From Bacilli bacterium (lineage in GTDB: Bacteria; Bacillota_I; Bacilli_A; RF39; UBA660), in NCBI GenBank assembly GCA_045638445.1, contig JAZUBJ010000048.1:1-38286 (forward strand): a stretch of 38,286 nt of DNA, in the 5' to 3' direction. The notes beneath the pieces are model-generated. The model saw only the letters and a program-made list of their open reading frames with translations. It was not told the DNA's origin and made no database searches. Both the position numbers and the translations under genes were made by a program. Of the stretch, positions 11,837-29,560 are shown one piece after another. How positions within the stretch are numbered: position 1 is the first letter of the stretch; each line of letters opens with the position of its first letter.

Positions 11837-12280
11837 CTATCTTTTTAATAATCTAATTGCTTCATATGCATTTTCACGTGTTAAACCACGATAAGGATCA
11901 GTTCTAACTAAATAACCATTTAACTCATTCATATAAGAATCATCAAGTATAACAAAATTACATGATATACCATTTAAAAAATCTTTTATTTCACTTTCTT
12001 TATTGCAAGAAATATTAGTCATAGCAATAACCCTATCAAATAAGTTGTATTGTATTAACTTATCTTTTAATACTTCCATATGATCATTATATTTTCTCCA
12101 TGAAGAACTTATAACAATGTATGAATTAGTTTCATCAATTATATATTTTAAATATTTCATACATTCTTCATCAAAAGGAAAATCTTTTCCTGAATGTCTT
12201 TTCCCAGTCAACATATATACTTCTTTAGATTTTCTATATGAATTTAAAACATAATCAACATCTAAAAAAATAAGTCTCAT
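11837..12280 (-). CDS. HAD-superfamily protein (HAD_SAK_2-like)
   Basis: IFLDVDYVLN, IVISSSWR and FVILDD motifs. Confidence 0.85.
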   Translation of the reverse strand: MRLIFLDVDYVLNSYRKSKEVYMLTGKRHSGKDFPFDEECMKYLKYIIDETNSYIVISSSWRKYNDHMEVLKDKLIQYNLFDRVIAMTNISCNKESEIKDFLNGISCNFVILDDSYMNELNGYLVRTDPYRGLTRENAYEAIRLLKR

Positions 12281-12816
12281 TTTCTTTTCCTTCTTTGTAC
12301 ATTCTCATCTTCATAAGTAATATTATATACATAATCAACTTCAATTCTTTCATAAGCAACACAAAAAAATTCTCTTTCTTCACTAGTCAATTCAGAGTGT
12401 AAAAAATAATAATCTACATTAGTATTATTAATATAATCACGAGTTACTTCCATAAGAATATTTTTATCACCTAATTTGTTTAATATATATACTTTACAAT
12501 TAGGATTTCTACTAAACATACATGATTTATCAAATAAATGATAAACATCAACAAATCTTTTTTCTTCAAAACAATTTACAACAAACTGATTATTAGAAGA
12601 ATTAAATAAATACTTCATATTATCATATTTTAATTTAGAACACACTTTTTGTACTTGAGAAATACTCATTCCCTCAAATTTTAAAACAAAAGGTAACTTT
12701 AATTTAGATTTCAATTTATTTATAGTTATTTCATTTACCTCGTATTCTTGGTTTTCAAAATTATAATAATATCTTTTCCCATTTCTAAAAAAATAAACTT
12801 CCATAAAACCCTCCAA
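12277..12816 (-). CDS. Hypothetical protein
   Basis: ORF with GGAGGG RBS (likely start 12804, MEVYFF); ATGA overlap with the HAD gene. Confidence 0.7.
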   Translation of the reverse strand: MEGFMEVYFFRNGKRYYYNFENQEYEVNEITINKLKSKLKLPFVLKFEGMSISQVQKVCSKLKYDNMKYLFNSSNNQFVVNCFEEKRFVDVYHLFDKSCMFSRNPNCKVYILNKLGDKNILMEVTRDYINNTNVDYYFLHSELTSEEREFFCVAYERIEVDYVYNITYEDENVQRRKRK

Positions 12817-12856
12817 AGTAAAATTTATTATATAATAAAAAAGTAGATTATAACAC

Positions 12857-14674
12857 CTACTTTTTAAAAAATTTATTAATAATTTTATTTAATTCAATTA
12901 TATCTATAGGTTTAGATATATATTCATCAAAACCTTGATTAATATAGTATTCATGACCACCAGTAACAGAGTTAGCTGTAAAAATAACTATCTTAGGTAA
13001 ATTATAATTTTCAAGGCTTTTTAACGCTTTTAAGACTTCTAAACCATTCATTCCTGGCATTTTATAGTCTAGCAGTAACATATCATAATTTTTTCCACTC
13101 TTTATTTTTTCAATACACTCAAATGGATCAGTAACATAATCAATTTTAAAATTATATCTTTTTAAAATTGCCTTTGTAACTTTAATATCCAAGTTATCAT
13201 CATCACATATAAGAATTTTATGTTCACTACAGTCAATAAAATTAATAATATCATCATTTTTATCAGCATTCTTATCTTCTAAAATAATCTTATTACCAAC
13301 TTTTCTTTGAGGTATATCTATATAAACAGTAGTACCTGCTTTATACACACTTTGAATTCTTAGATTACCATTAATTGATTCAACAATTTTTTTACACATA
13401 ACAAGTCCTTGCTTAGAAGAATCATTACCATCAAAAATAGAATCTAAATTTTCCTCTTTTATACCACAACCAGTATCTTGAATAATAAAATGAAGAATTT
13501 GTAAATCCTTATCATTTGTAACATTGACATTAAATACAACTTTTCCAATATCAGTATGAATACAAGCATTAGTAACAATATTTAATAACACACTTTGAAT
13601 TTTAGTAACATCACCAAATAATCTAGAACTAATATTATCATCAATATTCATTTCAAACCTTACTTGTTTTGAACCTATTCTAGAAGTAGCAACAGTCTCT
13701 ATTTTTTTAAATATTTCATAAGAAGAATATTCCTTCTCATTAACAAAATTACCATCTTCATTCATATTAGATAAATCTAAAATACTATCGATAGAATCAA
13801 GTAATGTATTACCGGCATATTTTATACTCTTTAAATCTCTAAATATTTCATCTTTATTTTCAATACACATATTAGACAACGACTGACTTAAAGAAACAAT
13901 TGCATTCATAGGATTAATTAAATCATATGATAAATTATATAAAAACTCATTTTTTACATTAGCAGTTTTATCTATCTTATTTTTAATTATTGAAACCTCC
14001 CTAAGTAATGCAATATCAGGATTTTCAATATTATAATATAATATCAACAAAATTATCATAGTAATAAAAGGCATAAAAGATATATATATGTACCTTGATT
14101 GAAAGAAAAAAGTTATCAATAATAATATTAATATTAATACAAATGTATTTAAAATATATTTTCTTTCTTTTCTAAATTTAACACCATAAAATAAACCAAC
14201 AAGACAACAAGAAAAAGTAACAATCATAGTTCCAATAAATCCGTTACCACCAGTAAAATCAGGCTCATCAAACACAAATCCAGGAAATTCACCACCACTA
14301 ATAGAAAAAACTAATATTAACATTAGCAAAAAAACTGATATTAAAACACCAACTCTTTTAAAATAATAAAATAAACTTTTATATTCTTTTCTATTTATTA
14401 ATACATTTAAATACCATCCAAACACAAATATATATATATATATAATACCATTTCTTACATTCCAAATAATTCTCACTAATTCACTCATATTGCCAAGTTC
14501 TTTAAGTATAAATATAAATGCAACATCAAATAATCCATACAACATAGATGACATAATTAAACCAACAAAAAATTTTGATTGAGTTGTTTTAGAACGTCTC
14601 TTAGTAAAATAAGTACAAAGCATCATAATTGTTAAAACCATACCAAGTATTGAAAATATTAAATTATATATCAT
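12857..14674 (-). CDS. Membrane hybrid histidine kinase-like protein lacking the phosphoacceptor His, with intact receiver
   Basis: About 7 TM; H-box reads LSYDLINPMNAI; N box NIVTNA; G1 DTGCG; REC has DD, LLDYKMP, T and KP. Confidence 0.85.
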   Translation of the reverse strand: MIYNLIFSILGMVLTIMMLCTYFTKRRSKTTQSKFFVGLIMSSMLYGLFDVAFIFILKELGNMSELVRIIWNVRNGIIYIYIFVFGWYLNVLINRKEYKSLFYYFKRVGVLISVFLLMLILVFSISGGEFPGFVFDEPDFTGGNGFIGTMIVTFSCCLVGLFYGVKFRKERKYILNTFVLILILLLITFFFQSRYIYISFMPFITMIILLILYYNIENPDIALLREVSIIKNKIDKTANVKNEFLYNLSYDLINPMNAIVSLSQSLSNMCIENKDEIFRDLKSIKYAGNTLLDSIDSILDLSNMNEDGNFVNEKEYSSYEIFKKIETVATSRIGSKQVRFEMNIDDNISSRLFGDVTKIQSVLLNIVTNACIHTDIGKVVFNVNVTNDKDLQILHFIIQDTGCGIKEENLDSIFDGNDSSKQGLVMCKKIVESINGNLRIQSVYKAGTTVYIDIPQRKVGNKIILEDKNADKNDDIINFIDCSEHKILICDDDNLDIKVTKAILKRYNFKIDYVTDPFECIEKIKSGKNYDMLLLDYKMPGMNGLEVLKALKSLENYNLPKIVIFTANSVTGGHEYYINQGFDEYISKPIDIIELNKIINKFFKK

Positions 14675-16524
14675 CTTTTCTCACCATCCAATACTTTATT
14701 TAAAACATTCCTTAAAAGTCTAGACTCTATAGGACACATAATATGATCAACATAAACATTTTCTTCCCAAAAAGTATCTGAAACAGATGTAAGTGCAATA
14801 ACAGGAGGAACTTTGATTCCTGACTCACTTATCTTTTTAACAAAATCAACTCCACTCATTTCCATCATATCATGATTTACAAAAATAAAATCGTATGTTG
14901 TATAACTAACTTTAGAAATAGCATCTAAAGGACTAATAATATTTTCTACGTTTAAATTATATTGCTTTAACATACGATTAAGAACTATAGTATTAATACC
15001 AGTATCATCTACAATCAAACACTTTTTATCGGAAATATCTAAAACTACTGAATTTCGTGTTTGTATTTTAGAAATGATATCACCAATCTTCTCATCATTT
15101 AAAACTTTTTGTTCAATTTTAATAATAAATTCTTCACCATTTGAAGAACTAACAAATTCAACACTACCATTAAGTAAATCAAGTAAACCCTTAACAATTA
15201 TTATTTTAATAATATCAACATCTATACCATTCTTACTATTAAAAATAAAACTTAATAATTCTTCAAAATTTTTATTAAAAAAATCATCATTTAAAAATCG
15301 AGCATTGTTTTTTATATGAAAAACATATTCATAAACATCATCATTTTTCAAACAAGAAGTAACATCTAAACTAATCTTTCCCCTATTAGAATGTTTAACT
15401 GAATAAGCAAGTAATATATTTAAAATTTTATCTATTTTATAGTCATCACCATTTAAACAATTATGAATATTTTCATCAACATTAATAAAAAACATTAACC
15501 CTTCTTTATCTATTAATCCATTAACATTACTACTAATATCAAAAATAATTGATTCTAATTTATAATCCTGATTATTTAACTTTTCTTTTTTAGAATCTAA
15601 TTTAGAAATATCAAGAATACTACTTACTAATTCATATAATTTTTTTGAAGCTTCTTCTATATCATTAATGCCTTCATCATATTCACTTTGAACAAATGAG
15701 TCAGAGGATAAAAGCATATCAGTAAAACCTAAAATAGTATTCATTGGAGCTCTAAGTTGATGAGACATATTAGTTATAAATTCACTTTTCGCATGATTTA
15801 ACTCTTCAGATTTTTTATTAGAATTATAAAATTCTTCTAAAAGAGAACTATCTTGACTTTCAATAGAAAAATATAAAAACATAATTACAACTGTATATAA
15901 AAAACAAACATCATTAATAAGCATAATACCACTTACACCTGTAAGAATTGAGATTAAACAAATAACAACAGATAATAAACCTAAAACACGAGTATTAAAA
16001 TCAACTTTTTTTCTATATACAATTATACTAACAATACTATATAAAATCGTTATACCACCCATCACAATCATAAAATATTTTAAAGGACCATCTAGTATAA
16101 ATAAATGTCCATCATTTAAACGAGTAATTTTAAATTCTAAAAAGACAGAACATAGTATATTTATAAGAACTAATATTCCACCAAGAACATAGCTTATTAT
16201 ATTATGTTCACGATAAAATTTTTCATTTTCCTCATCACTTTTAAATACAATAGCCATATAAAATACAAGTAAATAATCCCAACATACAAGAACAAAACAC
16301 AATATTTTTCCAAACAAAATTGCATTATCTGATAAACTAGTAGCTAAAAAACTCCATATAGTAAACATCATAATACATAACATTGTACAAGCAAGTAAAG
16401 CAAAAAATACTTTACCAGGAATTCTATGTGTTCTACCCTTCAAAAAGAACATTATAAGTATTATCAAAATATAAACGAAACAAACAATATTAATACAATT
16501 TGTAACAAAGAAATCACTCGCCAT
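14671..16524 (-). CDS. Membrane hybrid histidine kinase-like protein with H-box His, degenerate ATPase and pseudo-receiver
   Basis: About 7 TM; H-box MSHQLRAPMN; no N/G1/G2 consensus; REC has FVNHDM (D>N) and IMCPI (K>C). Start at 16524 follows a GAGGTG RBS. Confidence 0.85.
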   Translation of the reverse strand: MASDFFVTNCINIVCFVYILIILIMFFLKGRTHRIPGKVFFALLACTMLCIMMFTIWSFLATSLSDNAILFGKILCFVLVCWDYLLVFYMAIVFKSDEENEKFYREHNIISYVLGGILVLINILCSVFLEFKITRLNDGHLFILDGPLKYFMIVMGGITILYSIVSIIVYRKKVDFNTRVLGLLSVVICLISILTGVSGIMLINDVCFLYTVVIMFLYFSIESQDSSLLEEFYNSNKKSEELNHAKSEFITNMSHQLRAPMNTILGFTDMLLSSDSFVQSEYDEGINDIEEASKKLYELVSSILDISKLDSKKEKLNNQDYKLESIIFDISSNVNGLIDKEGLMFFINVDENIHNCLNGDDYKIDKILNILLAYSVKHSNRGKISLDVTSCLKNDDVYEYVFHIKNNARFLNDDFFNKNFEELLSFIFNSKNGIDVDIIKIIIVKGLLDLLNGSVEFVSSSNGEEFIIKIEQKVLNDEKIGDIISKIQTRNSVVLDISDKKCLIVDDTGINTIVLNRMLKQYNLNVENIISPLDAISKVSYTTYDFIFVNHDMMEMSGVDFVKKISESGIKVPPVIALTSVSDTFWEENVYVDHIMCPIESRLLRNVLNKVLDGEKR

Positions 16525-16634
16525 ATAAAACACCTCTCTACTATTTTCATTTTATCATATATAACAAAATAAAACATCAAAAACTTATAATTATATAAAT
16601 GAAAATTCAAATAAAAAATAAGATTTTTATAATC

Positions 16635-17729
16635 TTATTTCTTTATTCTTTCAAGAATATAATCATCAGTAAATTCAGAATTTAAAATAACTTCTTTATG
16701 CTTTTCTATATCAGCACCATCTACATCAGTCATAAAATAATAATTCATATCAGGATTTCCACTTTTTATAACAATTTCTCCCATTTTTTTCTTATCTACC
16801 CAATCAATATTAGCAGCCATCATATAACACAATTCATCTTCACCAAGAGATATAACTAAATTTTGAATTTCGTCGCATAATTGTTTATCTTTTTCATAAT
16901 CAAGTACTGAAAAAACATTTATAATTTGATCAATTGAAATTTCTTCATATAAATTTTCTACATTTGGTAAATTTCTCAGATATTCTAAAACTATTTCAAG
17001 AGCAGTATTTTGTATTCCTTTTCCATTATTTACATTATTAAAAACACTTATCAACATGTCAGCCTCTTCTTCATATGTTTCAATTTCATTATAATATCTA
17101 TCTGGATCTAATACAGAATTTAATTTTAAAGTTGTTATAAATACTCTAATTTTCTCTAAAAGATTTTTAATTTTTATCTTTTCTAATAAAGAATACACTA
17201 TATAATCAAAATACTCATCATCACACGACAAATCCTTGCTTTGATAACTTAATAAATATTTTATATCATCTTTTATATTATTAGCATTCTTTTTAGTTTT
17301 TCTACCAAAAGGATAAACCGGATAAATTTCACCTTCTTTAATTAATTCTTTTACCTCTTCAATTGTATATTCTTCTTTTAATGGAGTAAATTTATTTGAA
17401 AAAGCTTTTATCATTCTTTGATAATTTTGAGTCCACCAACTAAAGTCACGACCATGTCCCTCAGAACCAGAATCTATTGTTACTTTATCAATAGGAATTT
17501 CAATTATCTTATAAAATTTTCTTTCATATTTTCTATTTACATATTCTAAGTAATCATATATTTCAATTTCCATATCATAAAAATGACATATTAATTTGTA
17601 TAAATCTTTTGTATTCATTAATTCTTTATTATTCATAAAATCAATTGATAATTTTACTAAATTTAATACTTCCTTCTTTTTACAATCAAAATAATATTCA
17701 TAACTATATGTTTTTTCTTTAAGTTCCAT
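16635..17729 (-). CDS. Hypothetical cytoplasmic protein
   Basis: Long ORF; start at 17729 follows an AGGGGA RBS; no recognised motif. Confidence 0.75.
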   Translation of the reverse strand: MELKEKTYSYEYYFDCKKKEVLNLVKLSIDFMNNKELMNTKDLYKLICHFYDMEIEIYDYLEYVNRKYERKFYKIIEIPIDKVTIDSGSEGHGRDFSWWTQNYQRMIKAFSNKFTPLKEEYTIEEVKELIKEGEIYPVYPFGRKTKKNANNIKDDIKYLLSYQSKDLSCDDEYFDYIVYSLLEKIKIKNLLEKIRVFITTLKLNSVLDPDRYYNEIETYEEEADMLISVFNNVNNGKGIQNTALEIVLEYLRNLPNVENLYEEISIDQIINVFSVLDYEKDKQLCDEIQNLVISLGEDELCYMMAANIDWVDKKKMGEIVIKSGNPDMNYYFMTDVDGADIEKHKEVILNSEFTDDYILERIKK

Positions 17730-17786: not shown

Positions 17787-18734
17787 TTATTCTATATCAA
17801 ATTCAACTGAAAAATACTCACGTACATATGGACTAAGAACAATTGATTTAACAATTCTATAATGACCTTTATCAAGTGATCCATATAACCATTTCCAATT
17901 AACTTTCATCTCACGACCATTTTCATCGGTAAAATACCCTATCAAATTCCATCCATAATTATCTTTTAAAACAATTTCAGAATGCTTCCACTGACCATCA
18001 ACATATTCATCAATTCGATATTCTTCGCCATACACACTCTTCTCTTCACCAATATCACGAACAATAATAGTACATCCATCTTTAGTAAGAGTACCCTCTT
18101 TGATAGACATACTCATAACATCACTCTCTTCAAATTCCATAGTGGGAACATATTCATTAGGTGGAGTTAAAGGACAATTTATTTCATTATCAACAGGACA
18201 ATCAAATTTACTAAATTTTGATAAAACTATAACATTAACCATATCTTTTTCTTTAACACAGTAATATGTATCAACTAAAATACCTATATCAACATAACTA
18301 TCCGCATCGGCTAAATATTCATTTCTAACACCAATTAAAGGACTATTTTTAAATATAACGGCTTGAAAAGTATCAATTAATATTATGCAAATAATAGTTA
18401 AAAAGATAATTTTTATTGTTTTAATTTTACTTTTCATATCCTTTATTTTAGAACCAGAATAATCAATCGTTTTAATAATATTCTCTTCTAATTTTGAGTT
18501 ATATTCTTTTTTATTTAGTTTCTCACCACTTAATAACTCATTAATAGAAATATCTAACTCATCACATAAAGGCTTAATTAAACTTAAATCAGGCATACCA
18601 CGACCATTTTCCCATTTAGATATTGCTCTATCTGTTATATTTAATCTCATAGCAAGTTCTTTTTGCGTAAGTTCTTTCTCTTTTCTAAGTTCACATATAA
18701 ACTTTCCTATTTTTTCTTGATTCATACTTTTCAC
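17787..18734 (-). CDS. XRE-family HTH regulator fused to a TM helix and an extracellular Ig-like domain
   Basis: IGKFICELRKEKELTQKELA...AISKWENGRGMPD HTH, one TM, and a C-terminal W.WLYGSL.KGHYRIVK...SVEFDI domain. Confidence 0.85.
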   Translation of the reverse strand: MKSMNQEKIGKFICELRKEKELTQKELAMRLNITDRAISKWENGRGMPDLSLIKPLCDELDISINELLSGEKLNKKEYNSKLEENIIKTIDYSGSKIKDMKSKIKTIKIIFLTIICIILIDTFQAVIFKNSPLIGVRNEYLADADSYVDIGILVDTYYCVKEKDMVNVIVLSKFSKFDCPVDNEINCPLTPPNEYVPTMEFEESDVMSMSIKEGTLTKDGCTIIVRDIGEEKSVYGEEYRIDEYVDGQWKHSEIVLKDNYGWNLIGYFTDENGREMKVNWKWLYGSLDKGHYRIVKSIVLSPYVREYFSVEFDIE

Positions 18735-18787: not shown

Positions 18788-19663
18788 TTAGTGTTTTTTA
18801 ATTCTCTTTAACTTACCAGGTTCACTCCACCAATCGTAGTCATAATAATCTATATAATTTAATATTAAATCCCAAGGAGCACCAAGTCTTTTTAAACTTT
18901 CAATTTGTCTTGTTAAACAATACATCTCACCACTATAACCACCAGCAGCTACATTAGGTTCTTTATTTTCATATACACTCTCTACATATAATTTGTTGTG
19001 ACAAGCTTCATGAAAAATCGCACAACAAAGATTTTCAATATATGAATCAAAATCATAAAAATTTATAACACAAGTTGGAACTTCTTGATAAGCATCGTAA
19101 TATGTATGATGAGATGATGGACAATACATAATCTTTCCTATATTTTGAATAACTACTTTATAACTCATATAATCACGTTCTTTTAATACTAATAAAGCAT
19201 CTTTTACTTTTCTAACAAATTCTCTAGTACCAACTATTTTAATTTCATGTTTATCTTCAATTTTATCATTATATTCATTTCTTACAGCCTCAATAACATC
19301 TTCAGGTGCATTCATTTTATTTAGCATTTCAAATTGAAATTGATATGACTCTATCATAGACGCTTTCCCATCATAACAACAAAACTCACCATTTTTATTT
19401 TTTCTATAATTAATACTAACTAAATAAGCATGATAAGCTTCTCTAAGTAAACAACTAGCATACAAATAAGTACTAGCTTTACTTATATTATTGCCAACAT
19501 AATAAGTAAGATCAGTATAAGGATATAAAAAAGAAATGTTATTTTTTTTAATTTTACAAATTCGCGACACAACAAACTCAAACTTTTCCCTATCAGTTTC
19601 CTTAATTAATCTCAAAGCTTTCTTAGTATTACGAATAAATTCTTTATCTCCAATTATCTCCAT
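18788..19663 (-). CDS. Tandem two-domain HExxH (zincin-like) protein, first domain degenerate
   Basis: Two internal repeats, with LLREAYH and IFHEACH...GEMYCL. Confidence 0.7.
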   Translation of the reverse strand: MEIIGDKEFIRNTKKALRLIKETDREKFEFVVSRICKIKKNNISFLYPYTDLTYYVGNNISKASTYLYASCLLREAYHAYLVSINYRKNKNGEFCCYDGKASMIESYQFQFEMLNKMNAPEDVIEAVRNEYNDKIEDKHEIKIVGTREFVRKVKDALLVLKERDYMSYKVVIQNIGKIMYCPSSHHTYYDAYQEVPTCVINFYDFDSYIENLCCAIFHEACHNKLYVESVYENKEPNVAAGGYSGEMYCLTRQIESLKRLGAPWDLILNYIDYYDYDWWSEPGKLKRIKKH

Positions 19664-20156
19664 ATTTCTTCTCCATCTTTATTTTATTTAAACAATCAAT
19701 TAAATTAAATTCATCACTTGAATCTTTCCACCATTTTTTATCATAATGCTCTATTGCATAAAGAATATCATTTTCACGAGCACCAATTTTCTTCAAACAT
19801 TCAATTTGTTTAGTTAAACAATACATTTCAGCACTATAACCACAGTATTCTTTTGAAGGATTTTTGTTATCCATTAAAGCATCATTAAATAACTTTCCAT
19901 GATATGCTTCATGAACAAGAGCAGCAGCATACCATTTTAAATCATATTCACAACATACCTTTGTCATAAAAGCAGTAGGTACTTCTTTAAAAGGATCAAA
20001 ATAAGATAAACCAATATCTACTTTATTTTCAACAATCGCCCCTAAATTTTGAATAACAACTTTATAACTCATAAAATCTTTTTCTCGTAAAAGAAGCAAA
20101 CATTCCTTTGTTCTATCAATAAAATTTCTACTTCCTATTAATCTAATTTTTCCCAT
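19644..20156 (-). CDS. Single-domain HExxH (zincin-like) protein, paralog of the downstream gene
   Basis: LVHEAYH...AEMYCLTKQIECLKKIGA; shares MSYKVVIQN and EVPT with the neighbour. Confidence 0.7.
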   Translation of the reverse strand: MGKIRLIGSRNFIDRTKECLLLLREKDFMSYKVVIQNLGAIVENKVDIGLSYFDPFKEVPTAFMTKVCCEYDLKWYAAALVHEAYHGKLFNDALMDNKNPSKEYCGYSAEMYCLTKQIECLKKIGARENDILYAIEHYDKKWWKDSSDEFNLIDCLNKIKMEKKYGDNWR

Positions 20157-25280: not shown

Positions 25281-25907
25281 TTAATCCTCCACCACTACTC
25301 CTAAATTACTAACAATATATTTGCATTGAAATGTATCAACTTTTATTCCCTTCAAAGAATAATTATCAAATATAATACCACACATATCATTACTTCTAAA
25401 ATCAATTTCTTTTAAATTAGTATTTGAAAATCTAGAAAAACTAAAATTATTATCAGTAATTTCCATATTTTTAACAAAACACTCATTAAATGAAGACTCT
25501 TTTAAAAAAGAAGAATTAATTTTAACATTAGATATATTACTACCAGAAAAATTAATATATTCACAACTAGAATTATCAAAAAAAACATCTTTCAAAGAAC
25601 AATCTATAAAAGATACACCAGTCATTTTACAATTATTAAATTCAACACGAGAAATATATTTATTATTAAAACTCTTATTAGATAAATCACAATTATTAAA
25701 AACAACATCTAAAAATTCAACATCCTCAAACTCAACTAAATCAAAATTAATATTATTAAATATACAAGAATCAATAGTAGTATTACTTATTACTATTTTA
25801 TTAAGAGGATTTTCATTTATTTCAAAATTACAAAATTCGTTATCTAAAAGAATATCACCAAATTTAAATTCACTTGTTATTTTTATTTTAGGTTTATTTA
25901 TTTTCAT
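25281..25907 (-). CDS. Pentapeptide repeat protein
   Basis: Repeating five-residue units such as F.NCDLS, F.NCKMTG and F.DCSL. Confidence 0.9.
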   Translation of the reverse strand: MKINKPKIKITSEFKFGDILLDNEFCNFEINENPLNKIVISNTTIDSCIFNNINFDLVEFEDVEFLDVVFNNCDLSNKSFNNKYISRVEFNNCKMTGVSFIDCSLKDVFFDNSSCEYINFSGSNISNVKINSSFLKESSFNECFVKNMEITDNNFSFSRFSNTNLKEIDFRSNDMCGIIFDNYSLKGIKVDTFQCKYIVSNLGVVVED

Positions 25908-26827
25908 TTAATCACCTTTTTAATAAATTTAGAAATAATATCTAAATATAATTTAGGATTTTCAAAATAAGAAGCACAATGATCAGCATTATCTATCAAA
26001 TTATATTCAACTTTCTTCTTATCAGATTTATATAACTCTTCACTTAATTTATAACTTATTGTATTATCATTTTTACCATGAATTATAAGTATTGGTAATT
26101 TAGTTTTTTTAACACTTTTAAGTGATGTATGATATTTAATGTTAAAGTCACCAAATAAAACTCCAGAATTACAAGCCAAAATTGAAACCAACTTAACTGG
26201 TAACTTCTTACGCCTTATTGTTTCATTCATAACTTCAAGAGGACTATCAAATGGAGCATCTGCTATTATACCACACACATTTTTACTCATAACTAAATCA
26301 CTAGCCATTAAAACAGTCGAAGCACCCATTGAAGTTCCAGCTAAAATTATTTTATTATTAGGAAATCTATCACTAATATATTTAACCCAGACCGCAACAT
26401 CACGTCTTTCCTTAATTCCAAAAGTAATAGTTTTCCCTTCACTCTCATAATGAGCTCTTTGACAAACTAAAAGTACATTATAATTATTATCAAAAACAAA
26501 TTTCTTTATTCCTAAATTATTATCTTTATAATTTCCCCTATAACCATGAAAACTTATAACAATAGGTTTCTTTTCATCAAGAATATATAATTTACCAAAT
26601 AACTTTAAATTATCAAATGACTCAACAAATACATCTTCATGAGACAATTTATATTTTTCATATATCTCTTTTTTAACATCATTCATTACTTTTCTTTGTT
26701 CAGACGTATAATTAATTTTAACAAGTTTACTAGGTTTATCACATCTGTAAAATATAACTCTATAAATTATAAAAGTCACTAACAAATAAACAAAAGTAAT
26801 AGAAAGTAAAACATAAATAAATATCAT
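25904..26827 (-). CDS. Membrane-anchored alpha/beta hydrolase
   Basis: N-terminal TM, FHGY, GTSMG nucleophile, IHGKND and ADH. Confidence 0.9.
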   Translation of the reverse strand: MIFIYVLLSITFVYLLVTFIIYRVIFYRCDKPSKLVKINYTSEQRKVMNDVKKEIYEKYKLSHEDVFVESFDNLKLFGKLYILDEKKPIVISFHGYRGNYKDNNLGIKKFVFDNNYNVLLVCQRAHYESEGKTITFGIKERRDVAVWVKYISDRFPNNKIILAGTSMGASTVLMASDLVMSKNVCGIIADAPFDSPLEVMNETIRRKKLPVKLVSILACNSGVLFGDFNIKYHTSLKSVKKTKLPILIIHGKNDNTISYKLSEELYKSDKKKVEYNLIDNADHCASYFENPKLYLDIISKFIKKVIK

Positions 26828-27693
26828 AATAACTCCTTATTTTTAATTCTTTTATTTTCAAGTCTCTTAAGAAAACCACAGGTTTTACATAAATCGCAAA
26901 CTATCTTACCATTACCAAAATTATCTTTTATAAATTTAGTTTTTTCTTTATTTAAAATTGATTCTAAATCTTCTTCAAATATATTACCAAGAGGAATATC
27001 CCCATTATTATCAAGACAACAAGGTACAACTGTACCATCTACTAATATAGCAATTTGTTTTCTAAGAGCCCAACATTTTCCCTTCTCAATAATTTTTTCA
27101 CCCTTCATACTAGGCCAAGTAAATTCAATATCCTGATTTATATATATATGTTCATTTATTTCAAAAGCATTTTTTAATTTCAATTTTTCCTTCAAATCAT
27201 TAAGTTCATAATAATTCTCAAGTTCACTAATTATATAACTATTAACATCATTATTTCGAATATCTTCTAAATTCCATAATCTATAAGAAATCGTAATTCC
27301 ATTAAGTTCACTAACACAATCAAATATATTTTTTAAATATAAACTAGACATATGATCATTTTGATTATAACTATGAAGTGAAAAATTAATTTGTTTTATA
27401 CACTTAGCATTCTTTAAAACATCCAAATTCTCTTTTATTAAAGTACCATTAGTCGTAATATTAACCTGTAAATTATACTTATGAATTATGTCTAAAATAC
27501 CTTCAAGATTTTTATGCAATAATGGTTCACCCTTAACATGAAGAGTAACAACTTTAGTATAATTACAAACCTTTTTTATAACCTCTTCAAATTCGATTAA
27601 ACTCATCATCCTAGCTTCTCTTCCACAAGGAATACAAAACTCACATTTTAAATTACACATATTAGTTATTTCAATATAAATTTTCTTAAACAT
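26824..27693 (-). CDS. Radical SAM protein with SPASM/twitch domain
   Basis: CNLKCEFC motif, GEPLLH, TTNG, and C-terminal C...DGTVVPCC...GNI...CKTC. Confidence 0.92.
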   Translation of the reverse strand: MFKKIYIEITNMCNLKCEFCIPCGREARMMSLIEFEEVIKKVCNYTKVVTLHVKGEPLLHKNLEGILDIIHKYNLQVNITTNGTLIKENLDVLKNAKCIKQINFSLHSYNQNDHMSSLYLKNIFDCVSELNGITISYRLWNLEDIRNNDVNSYIISELENYYELNDLKEKLKLKNAFEINEHIYINQDIEFTWPSMKGEKIIEKGKCWALRKQIAILVDGTVVPCCLDNNGDIPLGNIFEEDLESILNKEKTKFIKDNFGNGKIVCDLCKTCGFLKRLENKRIKNKELL

Positions 27694-27715
27694 AACACAC
27701 CTAATTTCTAAAAAT

Positions 27716-27757
27716 AATTATATCAAAACAAAATAAAAAATGCTATTTCTAGCATTT
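27716..27757. repeat. 42-bp direct repeat, copy 1 (terminator plus extended -10)
   Basis: AATTATATCAAAACAAAATAAAAAATGCTATTTCTAGCATTT, identical to 29582-29623. Confidence 0.95.
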
Positions 27758-29560
27758 TTATAATTCATAACTTTTTCTATAATTATTCATAACAAATAAT
27801 CCTATAAAGAAAACAATACATATAGTTAAAATATCATCAATTACACTATTAAAACCAGTTTTAGGATTCTCTATTATTTCTTTAAATAAAACTTCTACAC
27901 TAACATCATCATTCAAAGAAAAAGAATACGTTCCATCTTCAAGTTTAGTTACATCTAAATCTAATACATTACCAGTTTTATCTTTTATAACAATTTTATC
28001 GAATTCATATCCATCATTAGCTAAATAATTGATTATTACTTGTGAATCAAATTTTTCAACATTAAACGTTCCATTTTCACTAGGTACTTTTTCAACTTCA
28101 TATTCTAATAAATATTTTATTATAATAGCATCTGAACTACCATTATTTGATAAATCAGAAATATTTGTCGAATTAAAATATCCATTGATAAGAAAACCAT
28201 CATCTAGCATCAGTATATCACTAAAAGAATCATTTGATGCACCGCCCCAACTTAATTGTTTATAAATAGAACCATTCTTATTAATAAATAATATAGTACC
28301 ATCACTACCACCATTACATAAAAAATCAGGAATATTATCTGAACCTGTTTTTCCAACAACAATTAATGTACCATTTTTATAAATAATTGCATCATTAGAA
28401 TAATCAGCACCATCTCCTCCCCATGAAGTTTGCCATAATATATTTCCATCTTTATCATATTTTAATATAACAGTATCATAACCAAACGTCCCAGGATCAC
28501 TTTGATTTACAAAACTACCTACTTCAGTTGAAAGAGATTCACCAATAACTATAAATTCATCATTTTCATGAAGTAATTTAGCAAAAGTCTCATTATTATC
28601 TCCTCCCCATGAAGTCTGCCACAGTAGATTGGCATTTTTATCAAATTTTGCTAAAAATAAATCATTATCTTCTTGCGCATCTATATGTCCACCAACAACA
28701 AAACTGTCGTCACTTAATAATACAATATCGTTAATTGTAATTTTTGAGTTTAAATCTATATTTTTCTTCCATAAAACATTACCATTTTTATCATATTTAA
28801 ACAAAATTTCATTAGATAACCTGTCAACAGATAACCAATCTATATTCGATGATTTGGATGTTCCAGAAACAATAAAAGAATCATCCGAAGTAACATAGAC
28901 CTTATCAAAATTGTCATAATCATTTCCACCCCAAACATTCTTCCACAATAATTCTCCATCATAATTATATTTTAATAAAATAGCACTTTCATTAGTATCA
29001 CCTTCAAGTTCTTTTATATCAGTTGAATTAGTATTTCCAAAAAGAACAAAACTATTATCATCTAAGTTTGTTAATCCATAAACAAAATCAATTTGGTTTC
29101 CTCCCCAACTATTTTGCCACAATAAATTACCATTTTTATCATAACAAACTAAAATTATTTCAGTAGAACGACCAGAAAATAATAATCCATCAATGTCAGT
29201 TGAATAAGATTCACCAGCAACAACATAATTACCATTTTCAAGTTCAATCAAATACTTAAATCTATCTGCACCTGATCCTCCCCAATTTTTTTTCCATACA
29301 ATATTACCAGCTAAATCATATTTAATAATAATACCATCTGTTCCACGAGTACCTTTGCTAGGTAAATCAGCTAAATCATTAGAACCAGAAGAACCGATTA
29401 CAATAATATATCCATCACTTGATAAAATAATATCATCAAATTCTTCTGAACTACTCCCACCAAAACCTTTTTGCCAATCTAAATTTACTTCTTCAGCATT
29501 TACAACACATGGTAAATATAAACAAAAAATGATTATAAAAATCAAAAATATTTTTTTCAT
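27758..29560 (-). CDS. Secreted beta-propeller repeat surface protein with NPKTG-type C-terminal anchor
   Basis: Signal peptide (VVNA|EE), about 8 W-x3-WGG-x3-D repeats, a small C-terminal beta domain, then NPKTG, a hydrophobic helix and a basic tail. Confidence 0.85.
   Translation of the reverse strand: MKKIFLIFIIIFCLYLPCVVNAEEVNLDWQKGFGGSSSEEFDDIILSSDGYIIVIGSSGSNDLADLPSKGTRGTDGIIIKYDLAGNIVWKKNWGGSGADRFKYLIELENGNYVVAGESYSTDIDGLLFSGRSTEIILVCYDKNGNLLWQNSWGGNQIDFVYGLTNLDDNSFVLFGNTNSTDIKELEGDTNESAILLKYNYDGELLWKNVWGGNDYDNFDKVYVTSDDSFIVSGTSKSSNIDWLSVDRLSNEILFKYDKNGNVLWKKNIDLNSKITINDIVLLSDDSFVVGGHIDAQEDNDLFLAKFDKNANLLWQTSWGGDNNETFAKLLHENDEFIVIGESLSTEVGSFVNQSDPGTFGYDTVILKYDKDGNILWQTSWGGDGADYSNDAIIYKNGTLIVVGKTGSDNIPDFLCNGGSDGTILFINKNGSIYKQLSWGGASNDSFSDILMLDDGFLINGYFNSTNISDLSNNGSSDAIIIKYLLEYEVEKVPSENGTFNVEKFDSQVIINYLANDGYEFDKIVIKDKTGNVLDLDVTKLEDGTYSFSLNDDVSVEVLFKEIIENPKTGFNSVIDDILTICIVFFIGLFVMNNYRKSYEL

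Follow-up and report, generated by a model that had tools for sequence, protein, structure and literature searches.

Histidine kinases are treated as homodimers, and in mixed-dimer complementation experiments with EnvZ/Taz1, NtrB and CheA, subunits without the phosphoacceptor His and subunits without the ATP site together restore phosphorylation. To our knowledge, the kinase-kinase heteromers described so far are inhibitory (RetS-GacS), and the known split kinases are of the CheA type and miss whole domains. Here we describe two overlapping genes, A and B, found on the reverse strand of contig JAZUBJ010000048.1 of an uncultured Bacilli bacterium; the whole 38,286-nucleotide (nt) stretch of this contig is called the window. 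Both genes encode proteins related to hybrid kinases, with seven predicted transmembrane segments (7TM), a dimerization and histidine phosphotransfer (DHp) domain, a catalytic ATP-binding (CA) or CA-like domain and a receiver (REC) or pseudo-receiver. Neither A nor B alone is a complete canonical HisKA hybrid kinase, as each lacks a part of the His/ATP-site set. The residue logic is the same as in the EnvZ/Taz1, NtrB and CheA mixed dimers; however, those are engineered mutants, whereas A and B are natural, encoded by separate genes and conserved across genera.

Two described systems have the phosphoacceptor and the ATP-binding catalytic domain on separate polypeptides, as A and B do. In CheA3/CheA4 of Rhodobacter sphaeroides and Hik36/Hik43 of Synechocystis, neither partner autophosphorylates alone and the mixture does (PMC3591291, PMC7656254). 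Both systems belong to the CheA class and lack whole domains, whereas A and B, which are known from sequence, keep the full 7TM-DHp-CA-REC architecture and show point losses only. Furthermore, a mixed DHp bundle would be needed in A-B because the His lies in the dimerization helix itself, unlike in the CheA split kinases. A survey reports that 3.66% of HisKA proteins are without HATPase and that 1.7% of HisKA proteins also show a phosphatase motif (PMC3591291). These HisKA-only predicted split kinases resemble A-B in having the HisKA and HATPase functions on separate proteins; however, a survey based on domain absence would miss A-B, since both domains are still recognisable in each protein.

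RetS, GacS and PA1611 are hybrid kinases interacting through their DHp domains, and the heterodimerization of RetS-GacS in Pseudomonas aeruginosa has been described (PMC12189002). The nearest solved relatives of A and B by sequence were RetS 6dk7/6dk8 and 7n0e. RetS inhibits an otherwise complete kinase, whereas in A-B neither partner is complete; the closer analogue of RetS-GacS is a group of ten pairs, presented below, in which A has a dead ATP site and B is complete. DivL of Caulobacter, like B, has a Tyr at the phosphoacceptor site that is kept under selection; it is described as a protein without kinase or phosphatase activity, with weak ATP binding and PAS domains, which senses DivK~P (PMC4211667). 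Unlike DivL, B shows an invariant N box and G1 box, has its own receiver and always lies beside a His-bearing partner. Spo0B and ChpT are soluble proteins with a DHp-like bundle that carries the His and a CA-like domain unable to bind ATP, and they obtain the phosphate from a receiver. A is like them in the His-bearing bundle and the ATP-less CA domain, and unlike them in its 7TM region, its pseudo-receiver and its coupled His-less ATP-binding partner. A His-less hybrid kinase of Caulobacter has merely been speculated to pair with another kinase (PMC11481889). Searches aimed at natural, conserved pairs of full-length HisKA kinases with mirror-image losses, which covered mostly open-access papers without their supplements, gave no earlier account of such a pair, and the exact phrase "heterodimeric histidine kinase" gave 0 papers.

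The analyses below lead us to favor, with restrained confidence, that A and B are the two halves of a hetero-oligomeric split kinase that would have arisen by tandem duplication of a canonical 7TM hybrid kinase, and the two proteins probably work only together.

Domains and conserved residues of A and B

The A protein sequence matches the Pfam families HisKA (E = 1.3e-13) and Response_reg (E = 4.3e-11), the latter spanning just positions 2-82 of the 111 of the profile, while its HATPase_c match is under the cut-off (Table 1). Alignments to solved kinases and the family alignment place the phosphoacceptor His within the motif MSHQLRAP. In the ATP site, AYSV is found at the position of the N-box NA and KNNARF at the position of DxGxG, and the G2 glycines are gone. 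The receiver shows Asn at the phospho-Asp position (FVNHDM) and Cys at the Lys position (IMCP), and both substitutions are also present in the orthologues P0002-P0005. No variation is seen across 45 A-type sequences at His258, Arg261, Pro263 or the Asn found in place of the G1 Asp. The strong conservation of the CA-like domain suggests a retained role such as docking. Most A-type proteins show a conserved N-T-G-H-x-M motif, with an invariant Asn, at the former DxGxG (window positions ~15300-15320), and the A of the window is further diverged in this region, with KNNARF in its place. The residues that follow the His, Gln at His+1 and Ala at His+4, depart from the canonical HisKA rule of an acidic residue at +1 and Thr/Asn at +4.

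B matches HisKA (E = 3.3e-6), HATPase_c (E = 1.4e-15) and Response_reg (E = 3.7e-20). Its motifs are LSYDL, with Tyr in place of His, an N box NIVTNA, a G1 box DTGCG, and the DD, D, T and K of the receiver. Among 46 B-type sequences, N369, D400, G402, G404, D491, D492, D536 and K588 are all invariant; this conservation of the N box and G1 argues for nucleotide binding, and does not imply catalysis. No His is found elsewhere in the DHp domain of B, and 97 of 113 His-less B-type rows are likewise without any DHp His. In the clade of this B, the residues following the former His are Asp at +1 and Asn at +4, which constitute a phosphatase-type motif. Compared with canonical hybrid kinases, the receiver is complete in B and incomplete in A. 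Judged by their residues, 19 pairs, including this one, have phosphoacceptor and ATP binding on separate polypeptides. Sequencing or assembly errors are excluded, because orthologues 47-68% identical to A and B share the same substitutions, including the receiver Asn and Cys.

Over the entire cytoplasmic part, A and B share 26% identity, hydropathy predicts seven membrane segments in each, and the membrane-exit motif is separated from the His/Tyr position by 30 residues in both. The stop codon TGA of A shares letters with the start codon ATG of B (AGATGATA), and a Shine-Dalgarno-like GGTGAG sits 7 nt 5' of the latter; this translational coupling favors equal synthesis of A and B. The open frame of A reaches 16533 (GTG, 620 amino acid (aa) residues from there). 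However, translation in fact begins at the ATG at 16524 (MASDFF), which has a ribosome-binding site (GAGAGGTG) before it, and the coordinates 14671-16524 are correct since homologues begin alike (MASxF). The region upstream of A probably serves as promoter region for an A-B operon. A consensus scan of 12200-17000 gave no terminator-like site and no enrichment of promoter-like sites.

These results agree in full with the sequence observations of the original prediction, made from the letters of the window, which had described two ~7-TM genes overlapping by ATGA, an A that keeps the His and is without N, G1 and G2 boxes and without the receiver Asp and Lys, and a B with Tyr for His, an intact N box and G1, and a full receiver. 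Its two caveats were also seen: HQ and RAP instead of HE and RTP in the motif columns of A, and a shortened ATP lid with a degenerate G2 box in the alignment of B to the solved kinase 7z8n.

The 7TM region of A matches no Pfam family. Among the 45 A-type proteins, no match to Pfam HisKA_7TM (PF16927) was obtained at E values up to 1; the sole link to it was a protein-atlas feature lead (0.89) for the homologue P0036, which Pfam did not confirm. A search with the A 7TM region gave 28 relatives among 1.84 billion representative proteins, and it offers no ligand clue, as every one of them belongs to this family or its fragments.

Table 1. Features of the A-B locus, in window coordinates
Feature	Coordinates	Strand	Basis
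Gene A, 617 aa; 7TM - DHp(His) - degenerate CA-like domain - pseudo-receiver	14671..16524	-	
A, seven predicted membrane segments, sensor region	15874..16497	-	hydropathy; no Pfam family
A, HisKA/DHp; phosphoacceptor His codon 15760-15762 (H-Q-L-R-A-P)	15592..15792	-	Pfam, alignment to solved kinases
A, CA-like domain without ATP-binding residues	15112..15447	-	HATPase_c E = 0.077; motifs
A, pseudo-receiver; DD kept, phospho-Asp to Asn, Lys to Cys	14690..15018	-	Pfam, motifs
Overlap ATGA of A stop and B start; translational coupling	14671..14674	-	sequence
Gene B, 605 aa; 7TM - His-less DHp - CA - receiver	12857..14674	-	
B, seven predicted membrane segments	14036..14662	-	hydropathy
B, DHp; Tyr (TAT, 13925-13927) at the His position (Y-D-L-I-N-P)	13760..13954	-	Pfam, alignments
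B, catalytic ATP-binding domain; N-box Asn and G1 DxGxG intact	13304..13615	-	Pfam, alignments
B, complete receiver; DD491/492, D536, T566, K588	12878..13216	-	Pfam, family alignment
AT-rich intergenic region 5' of A; probable promoter region	16525..16634	-	ribosome-binding site; A/T-rich hairpin and T-run after the upstream gene

Distribution of the gene pair

The source genome is a bin of 1.72 Mb in 158 contigs (90% complete, 5.7% contamination, ~24% G+C), in which the window is contig C48. Family members were found in the 24 sampled genomes of the same genus (24/24) and, order-wide, 55 of 81 genomes (59 genera) showed a match at E 1e-40 or better. From these, 52 loci were taken and each family member was classified by its motif columns. 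In 31 cases, across 16 genomes and four genera, an A-clade gene and a B-clade gene are adjacent, with the A-clade gene on the upstream side: 19 of these pairs are complementary (A keeps His and has lost G1, B has lost His and keeps G1), ten combine an A with a dead ATP site and a fully canonical B, two have both copies canonical, and none shows any other combination, including random or reversed ones. This pattern is far beyond chance, given its recurrence in orthologous and paralogous pairs, and the 12 non-complementary pairs are earlier stages of the same series of losses. All His-less B genes with a readable upstream side (20/20) have an A-clade gene directly upstream, and the A-to-B spacer ranges between -26 and +19 nt in the 30 pairs measured (30/30). 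The pair on C46, whose A has 498 aa and no receiver, was omitted from the 30-pair analyses.

The protein database gave the same picture, in cluster sets that overlap partly with the genome loci and from which proteins shorter than 480 aa were omitted. The 115 listed A-similar clusters comprise 59 with His and without the G1 Asp, 56 canonical and none without His, while the 116 B-similar clusters comprise 91 His-less and 25 canonical. In the 91 His-less B clusters the His is replaced by Tyr (79), Ser (8), Thr (2) or Asn (2). All 91 retain the N-box Asn and the G1 Asp, 89 the receiver Asp and Lys, and 88 the receiver Thr; two of the rows are gapped and one has Ser for Thr. The only annotation name found among these relatives is "response regulator [Bacilli bacterium]".

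Two unusual forms were seen, one among the database clusters and one among the genome loci. The cluster P0226 is a chimera with an A-type 7TM region and H box (NMSHQFRTP) and a B-type sequence thereafter (44% identical to B); on paper it is a complete kinase, although it is a single cluster on one 6.4-kb contig and a misassembly across the H-box region is possible. In another genus, two otherwise canonical B-clade kinases (L061, 2861-5017, and L062, 1-2802) show Met in place of the receiver Lys (LPMPI), and they are longer, with 719 and at least 934 aa, respectively.

Order of the losses and selection

A tree of 99 rows, from which rows shorter than 520 aa were omitted, was generated with a quick IQ-TREE run under LG+G4. 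The A clade contains 34 rows, with support of 97 in the SH-like approximate likelihood ratio test (SH-aLRT), and at its base lie canonical upstream copies of the genus g46. A nested A clade of 32 rows (support 99) has lost G1 in 32/32 and kept the His in 31/32. The B clade contains 35 rows (support 98), with G1 intact in 35/35 and the His present in 13. By parsimony on this tree, the ATP site requires one change, the His four (three in B and one in an A copy on C130) and the receiver Asp two.

We also analyzed concatenated pairs, using 30 pairs with the His column dropped and the root placed on the pairs with both copies canonical. The His state requires two changes on this tree, and 0 of 200 bootstrap trees need just one. 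A single His-less clade is rejected by the approximately unbiased (AU) test (p = 0.0079), for a group that was named after the tree had been seen. The distances of A to A and of B to B are correlated with r = 0.855, compared with a maximum of 0.375 over 1000 shuffles of the partners. The trees place the events in a series: a tandem duplication, then the loss of ATP binding in A, once, and then the loss of the His in B, at least twice, beside a His-bearing A. As a later step on the same trees, the receiver Asp of A was lost in the clade of this genome and once elsewhere.

Rates of nonsynonymous to synonymous substitution (dN/dS) were calculated by domain with the Nei-Gojobori method; many dS values are near saturation, and the ratios are reliable only for the closest pairs (dS 0.3-0.5). 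In close orthologue pairs, dN/dS is 0.02, 0.03 and 0.11 for the dead CA domain of A and 0.03 and 0.00 for the His-less DHp domain of B, in comparison with 0.04-0.15 for canonical CA domains. The fastest-evolving parts are the 7TM regions, with dN/dS of 0.06-0.8. Recent paralogues within this genome show higher values: 0.10-0.31 for the A CA-like domain, 0.27-0.48 for the A pseudo-receiver and 0.49 for the B DHp domain.

Three expectations of the original prediction were therefore borne out. Complementary losses and adjacency are conserved in orthologous pairs (19 of 31), with no random or reversed pattern; the degenerate domains are under strong purifying selection, with dN/dS of 0.00-0.03 in the closest orthologue pairs; and A and B co-occur, with tight coupling and mirrored trees. 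The proposal of a heterodimeric kinase made there is supported in part by these comparisons.

Arrays and relay proteins of the source genome

A phmmer search of the source genome found 28 open reading frames (ORFs) related to A or B, with at least ten A-type and nine B-type genes. The two types alternate in tandem on contigs C8, C17, C46, C48, C102, C111, C130 and C142. The small contigs are pieces of (A-B)n arrays, since the ORFs at the edges of C102, C111 and C130 are B genes that run off the contig. Four of these array contigs, C102 (53-8225, B-A-B-A-B), C111 (1-6176), C130 (143-2743) and C142 (3-2380), are broken at contig ends. ORFs of 223 aa beside the arrays are not response regulators, but B genes truncated where the contigs end. 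The copy number could be an overestimate if the bin (5.7% contamination) mixes strains.

No HPt (histidine phosphotransfer) protein or output regulator lies within the window, as had been noticed from its letters and as the domain scan showed. Elsewhere in the genome two HPt proteins were found, a 412-aa HPt-linker-REC protein on C4 and a stand-alone HPt on C136, together with three canonical kinases of the family (C66, C109 and C51) and just two receiver proteins of output-domain length (C84 and C76). Many sensors probably feed one relay, judging from the at least ten A and nine B genes against two output-length regulators and two HPt proteins, and this large expansion suggests that, in uncultured gut bacteria, the system is designed with many sensors on a single relay. 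Canonical single-copy relatives have a 259-aa ORF next downstream in 12 loci, and the two that were scanned (2/2) are HPt-plus-receiver proteins. The corresponding protein on C4 (6339-7577, + strand) has 412 aa against the 259 aa of the relatives, and contains between HPt and receiver an inserted linker rich in Pro, Ala, Val and Gln, with ~3 near-identical repeats.

Proposed mechanism and alternative explanations

When the gene of a homodimeric protein is duplicated in tandem, the two products can be expected to co-assemble. In the split kinase that we favor, A and B would assemble through their homologous DHp helices, which keep the same register and are expressed with translational coupling, and the assembly may be a 1:1 DHp heterodimer or A2 plus B2. 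The ATP-binding domain of B would then phosphorylate the His of A in trans, and the phosphoryl group would pass from the A His to the receiver Asp of B, as the own receiver of A is dead in this clade. From the B receiver it would continue to one of the two HPt proteins of the genome and to a response regulator. Each partner would bring its own fast-evolving 7TM sensor, and the output could depend on both inputs, in an AND-type logic. This is the most economical reading, and we would consider it more likely for pairs of the older type, in which A shows the full H-E-x-x-T motif and B a full lid. The wider proposal, that A-B is a natural obligate heteromeric HisKA kinase in which complementary losses after duplication (the ATP site of one copy, next the His of the other, next the receiver Asp of the first) locked two 7TM sensors into an asymmetric unit, later multiplied into (A-B)n arrays that give small-genome gut Bacilli a repertoire of two-sensor receptors feeding a shared HPt, is put forward tentatively, as something that may well be so and that falls somewhat short of probable.

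Several points weigh against the split kinase. The chief one is the Gln at His+1 in the A clade to which the pair belongs, seen in 32 database clusters and three genome copies; this A has in addition Ala at His+4. The ATP lid of B is ~11 residues shorter than that of 7z8n, and its G2 box is degenerate (SSKQGL). Two A copies of the genome, on C130 (143-2020) and C111 (1-1199, truncated), have Tyr for His and are without the ATP site too. On the 99-row single-gene tree, the AU test does not reject a single His-less clade (p = 0.381). A geometry of cis autophosphorylation would defeat a 1:1 heterodimer, and the conservation of the nucleotide site of B could instead serve a nucleotide-dependent phosphatase role, for which EnvZ is a precedent. 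DivL, a His-to-Tyr kinase, is silent in catalysis and senses a phosphorylated regulator (PMC4211667). With regard to the catalytic residues, a study of four HisKA kinases reports that the acidic residue at His+1 is needed for autokinase activity and the Thr/Asn at His+4 for phosphatase activity (PMC3510030). A short ATP lid need not block ATP binding, as shown for DosS (PMC10312584).

The alternative that survives best, which we nevertheless judge unlikely, is that A-B has no kinase activity of its own and that both proteins are signal-regulated modulators of a phosphorelay driven by the canonical hybrid kinases of the genome. The B receiver would drain the shared HPt as a sink or phosphatase, with the nucleotide as a cofactor, and A would use its His to shuttle or siphon phosphate in the manner of Spo0B/ChpT or RetS. 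A loss of autokinase activity agrees with the residue at His+1, which is Gln in this A clade and Lys in the A copies of genus g55 (PMC3510030), and the phosphatase-type Asp +1 and Asn +4 of B speak for this alternative; the genome also offers the three canonical kinases (C66, C109 and C51) and two HPt proteins that the relay would need. The ten pairs of a dead-ATP A and a canonical B resemble RetS-GacS-type partners (PMC12189002), and DivL gives a precedent for a silent His-to-Tyr kinase (PMC4211667). However, the His is kept in 31 of the 32 dead-ATP rows of the A clade and is lacking in 0 of 115 A-similar clusters, and it is kept even where the own receiver of A is dead, so that the A His needs a phosphodonor. 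Furthermore, B lost its His on two or more occasions, in every case next to an A that has one, the older pair type has a full H-E-x-x-T in A and a fully canonical ATP-binding domain in B, and the relay required would be longer and less economical.

It is very improbable that B phosphorylates a hydroxyl residue, either its own Tyr, Ser or Thr at the former His position or one of another protein, with A as its regulator or substrate. The replacement of His by Tyr, Ser or Thr in 89 of 91 database clusters and 19 of 22 genome copies would suit this activity, and Ser/Thr kinase activity has been reported for other histidine-kinase folds, one paper title calling KdpD a tandem serine histidine kinase. 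However, other conserved His-less B lineages have Asn or Asp at this position, and mutation alone explains much of the replacement pattern, as Tyr, Asn and Asp are single-base neighbours of the His codons. In addition, the Tyr of DivL is reported as unphosphorylated in vitro (PMC4211667), and the conservation of the A His would be left unexplained.

That A and B are functionless decaying duplicates is scarcely credible: many catalytic residues are gone, two A copies of the arrays are also His-less and dN/dS is higher (0.10-0.49) among the recent paralogues of this genome, but the frames are intact, dN/dS is 0.00-0.03 on "dead" domains of close orthologues, the same substitutions recur across dozens of clusters and four genera, and the losses are ordered and non-random.

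If the split kinase is true, A-B would offer a natural setting in which to study trans-autophosphorylation and the asymmetry of the dimer. It would be, in vivo, what the classic mixed-dimer complementation experiments engineered, and it would provide a natural template for sensors with two inputs. It would also show how duplication and complementary loss yield an obligate heteromer, a ratchet-like gain of complexity in signalling, and it would be a warning for annotation, as the labels "response regulator" or "histidine kinase" would hide non-autonomous halves.

Genomic context and other features of the window

The window is ordinary chromosome, with genes for FtsW/RodA, thymidylate synthase and a Y-family polymerase. 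Most of it is contained in several metagenome assemblies from animal gut or faeces, while one metatranscriptome contains only 5% of its words. The second gene upstream of A (17787-18734, likewise - strand) codes for a protein that combines an XRE-type helix-turn-helix with a membrane segment and, at its C terminus, a Big_14 domain. It is followed in the window by two overlapping paralogues (18788-19663 and 19644-20156, both - strand), which are 40% identical over 154 residues and have no Pfam match; the longer one consists of two copies of the module, and each module shows a HEAxH-like motif. The region 25904-29560 (- strand) encodes a radical SAM/SPASM protein, an alpha/beta hydrolase and a third protein, of 600 aa, whose matches to beta-propeller and jacalin-like models are weak, and it could be a small peptide-modification or cell-surface cluster.

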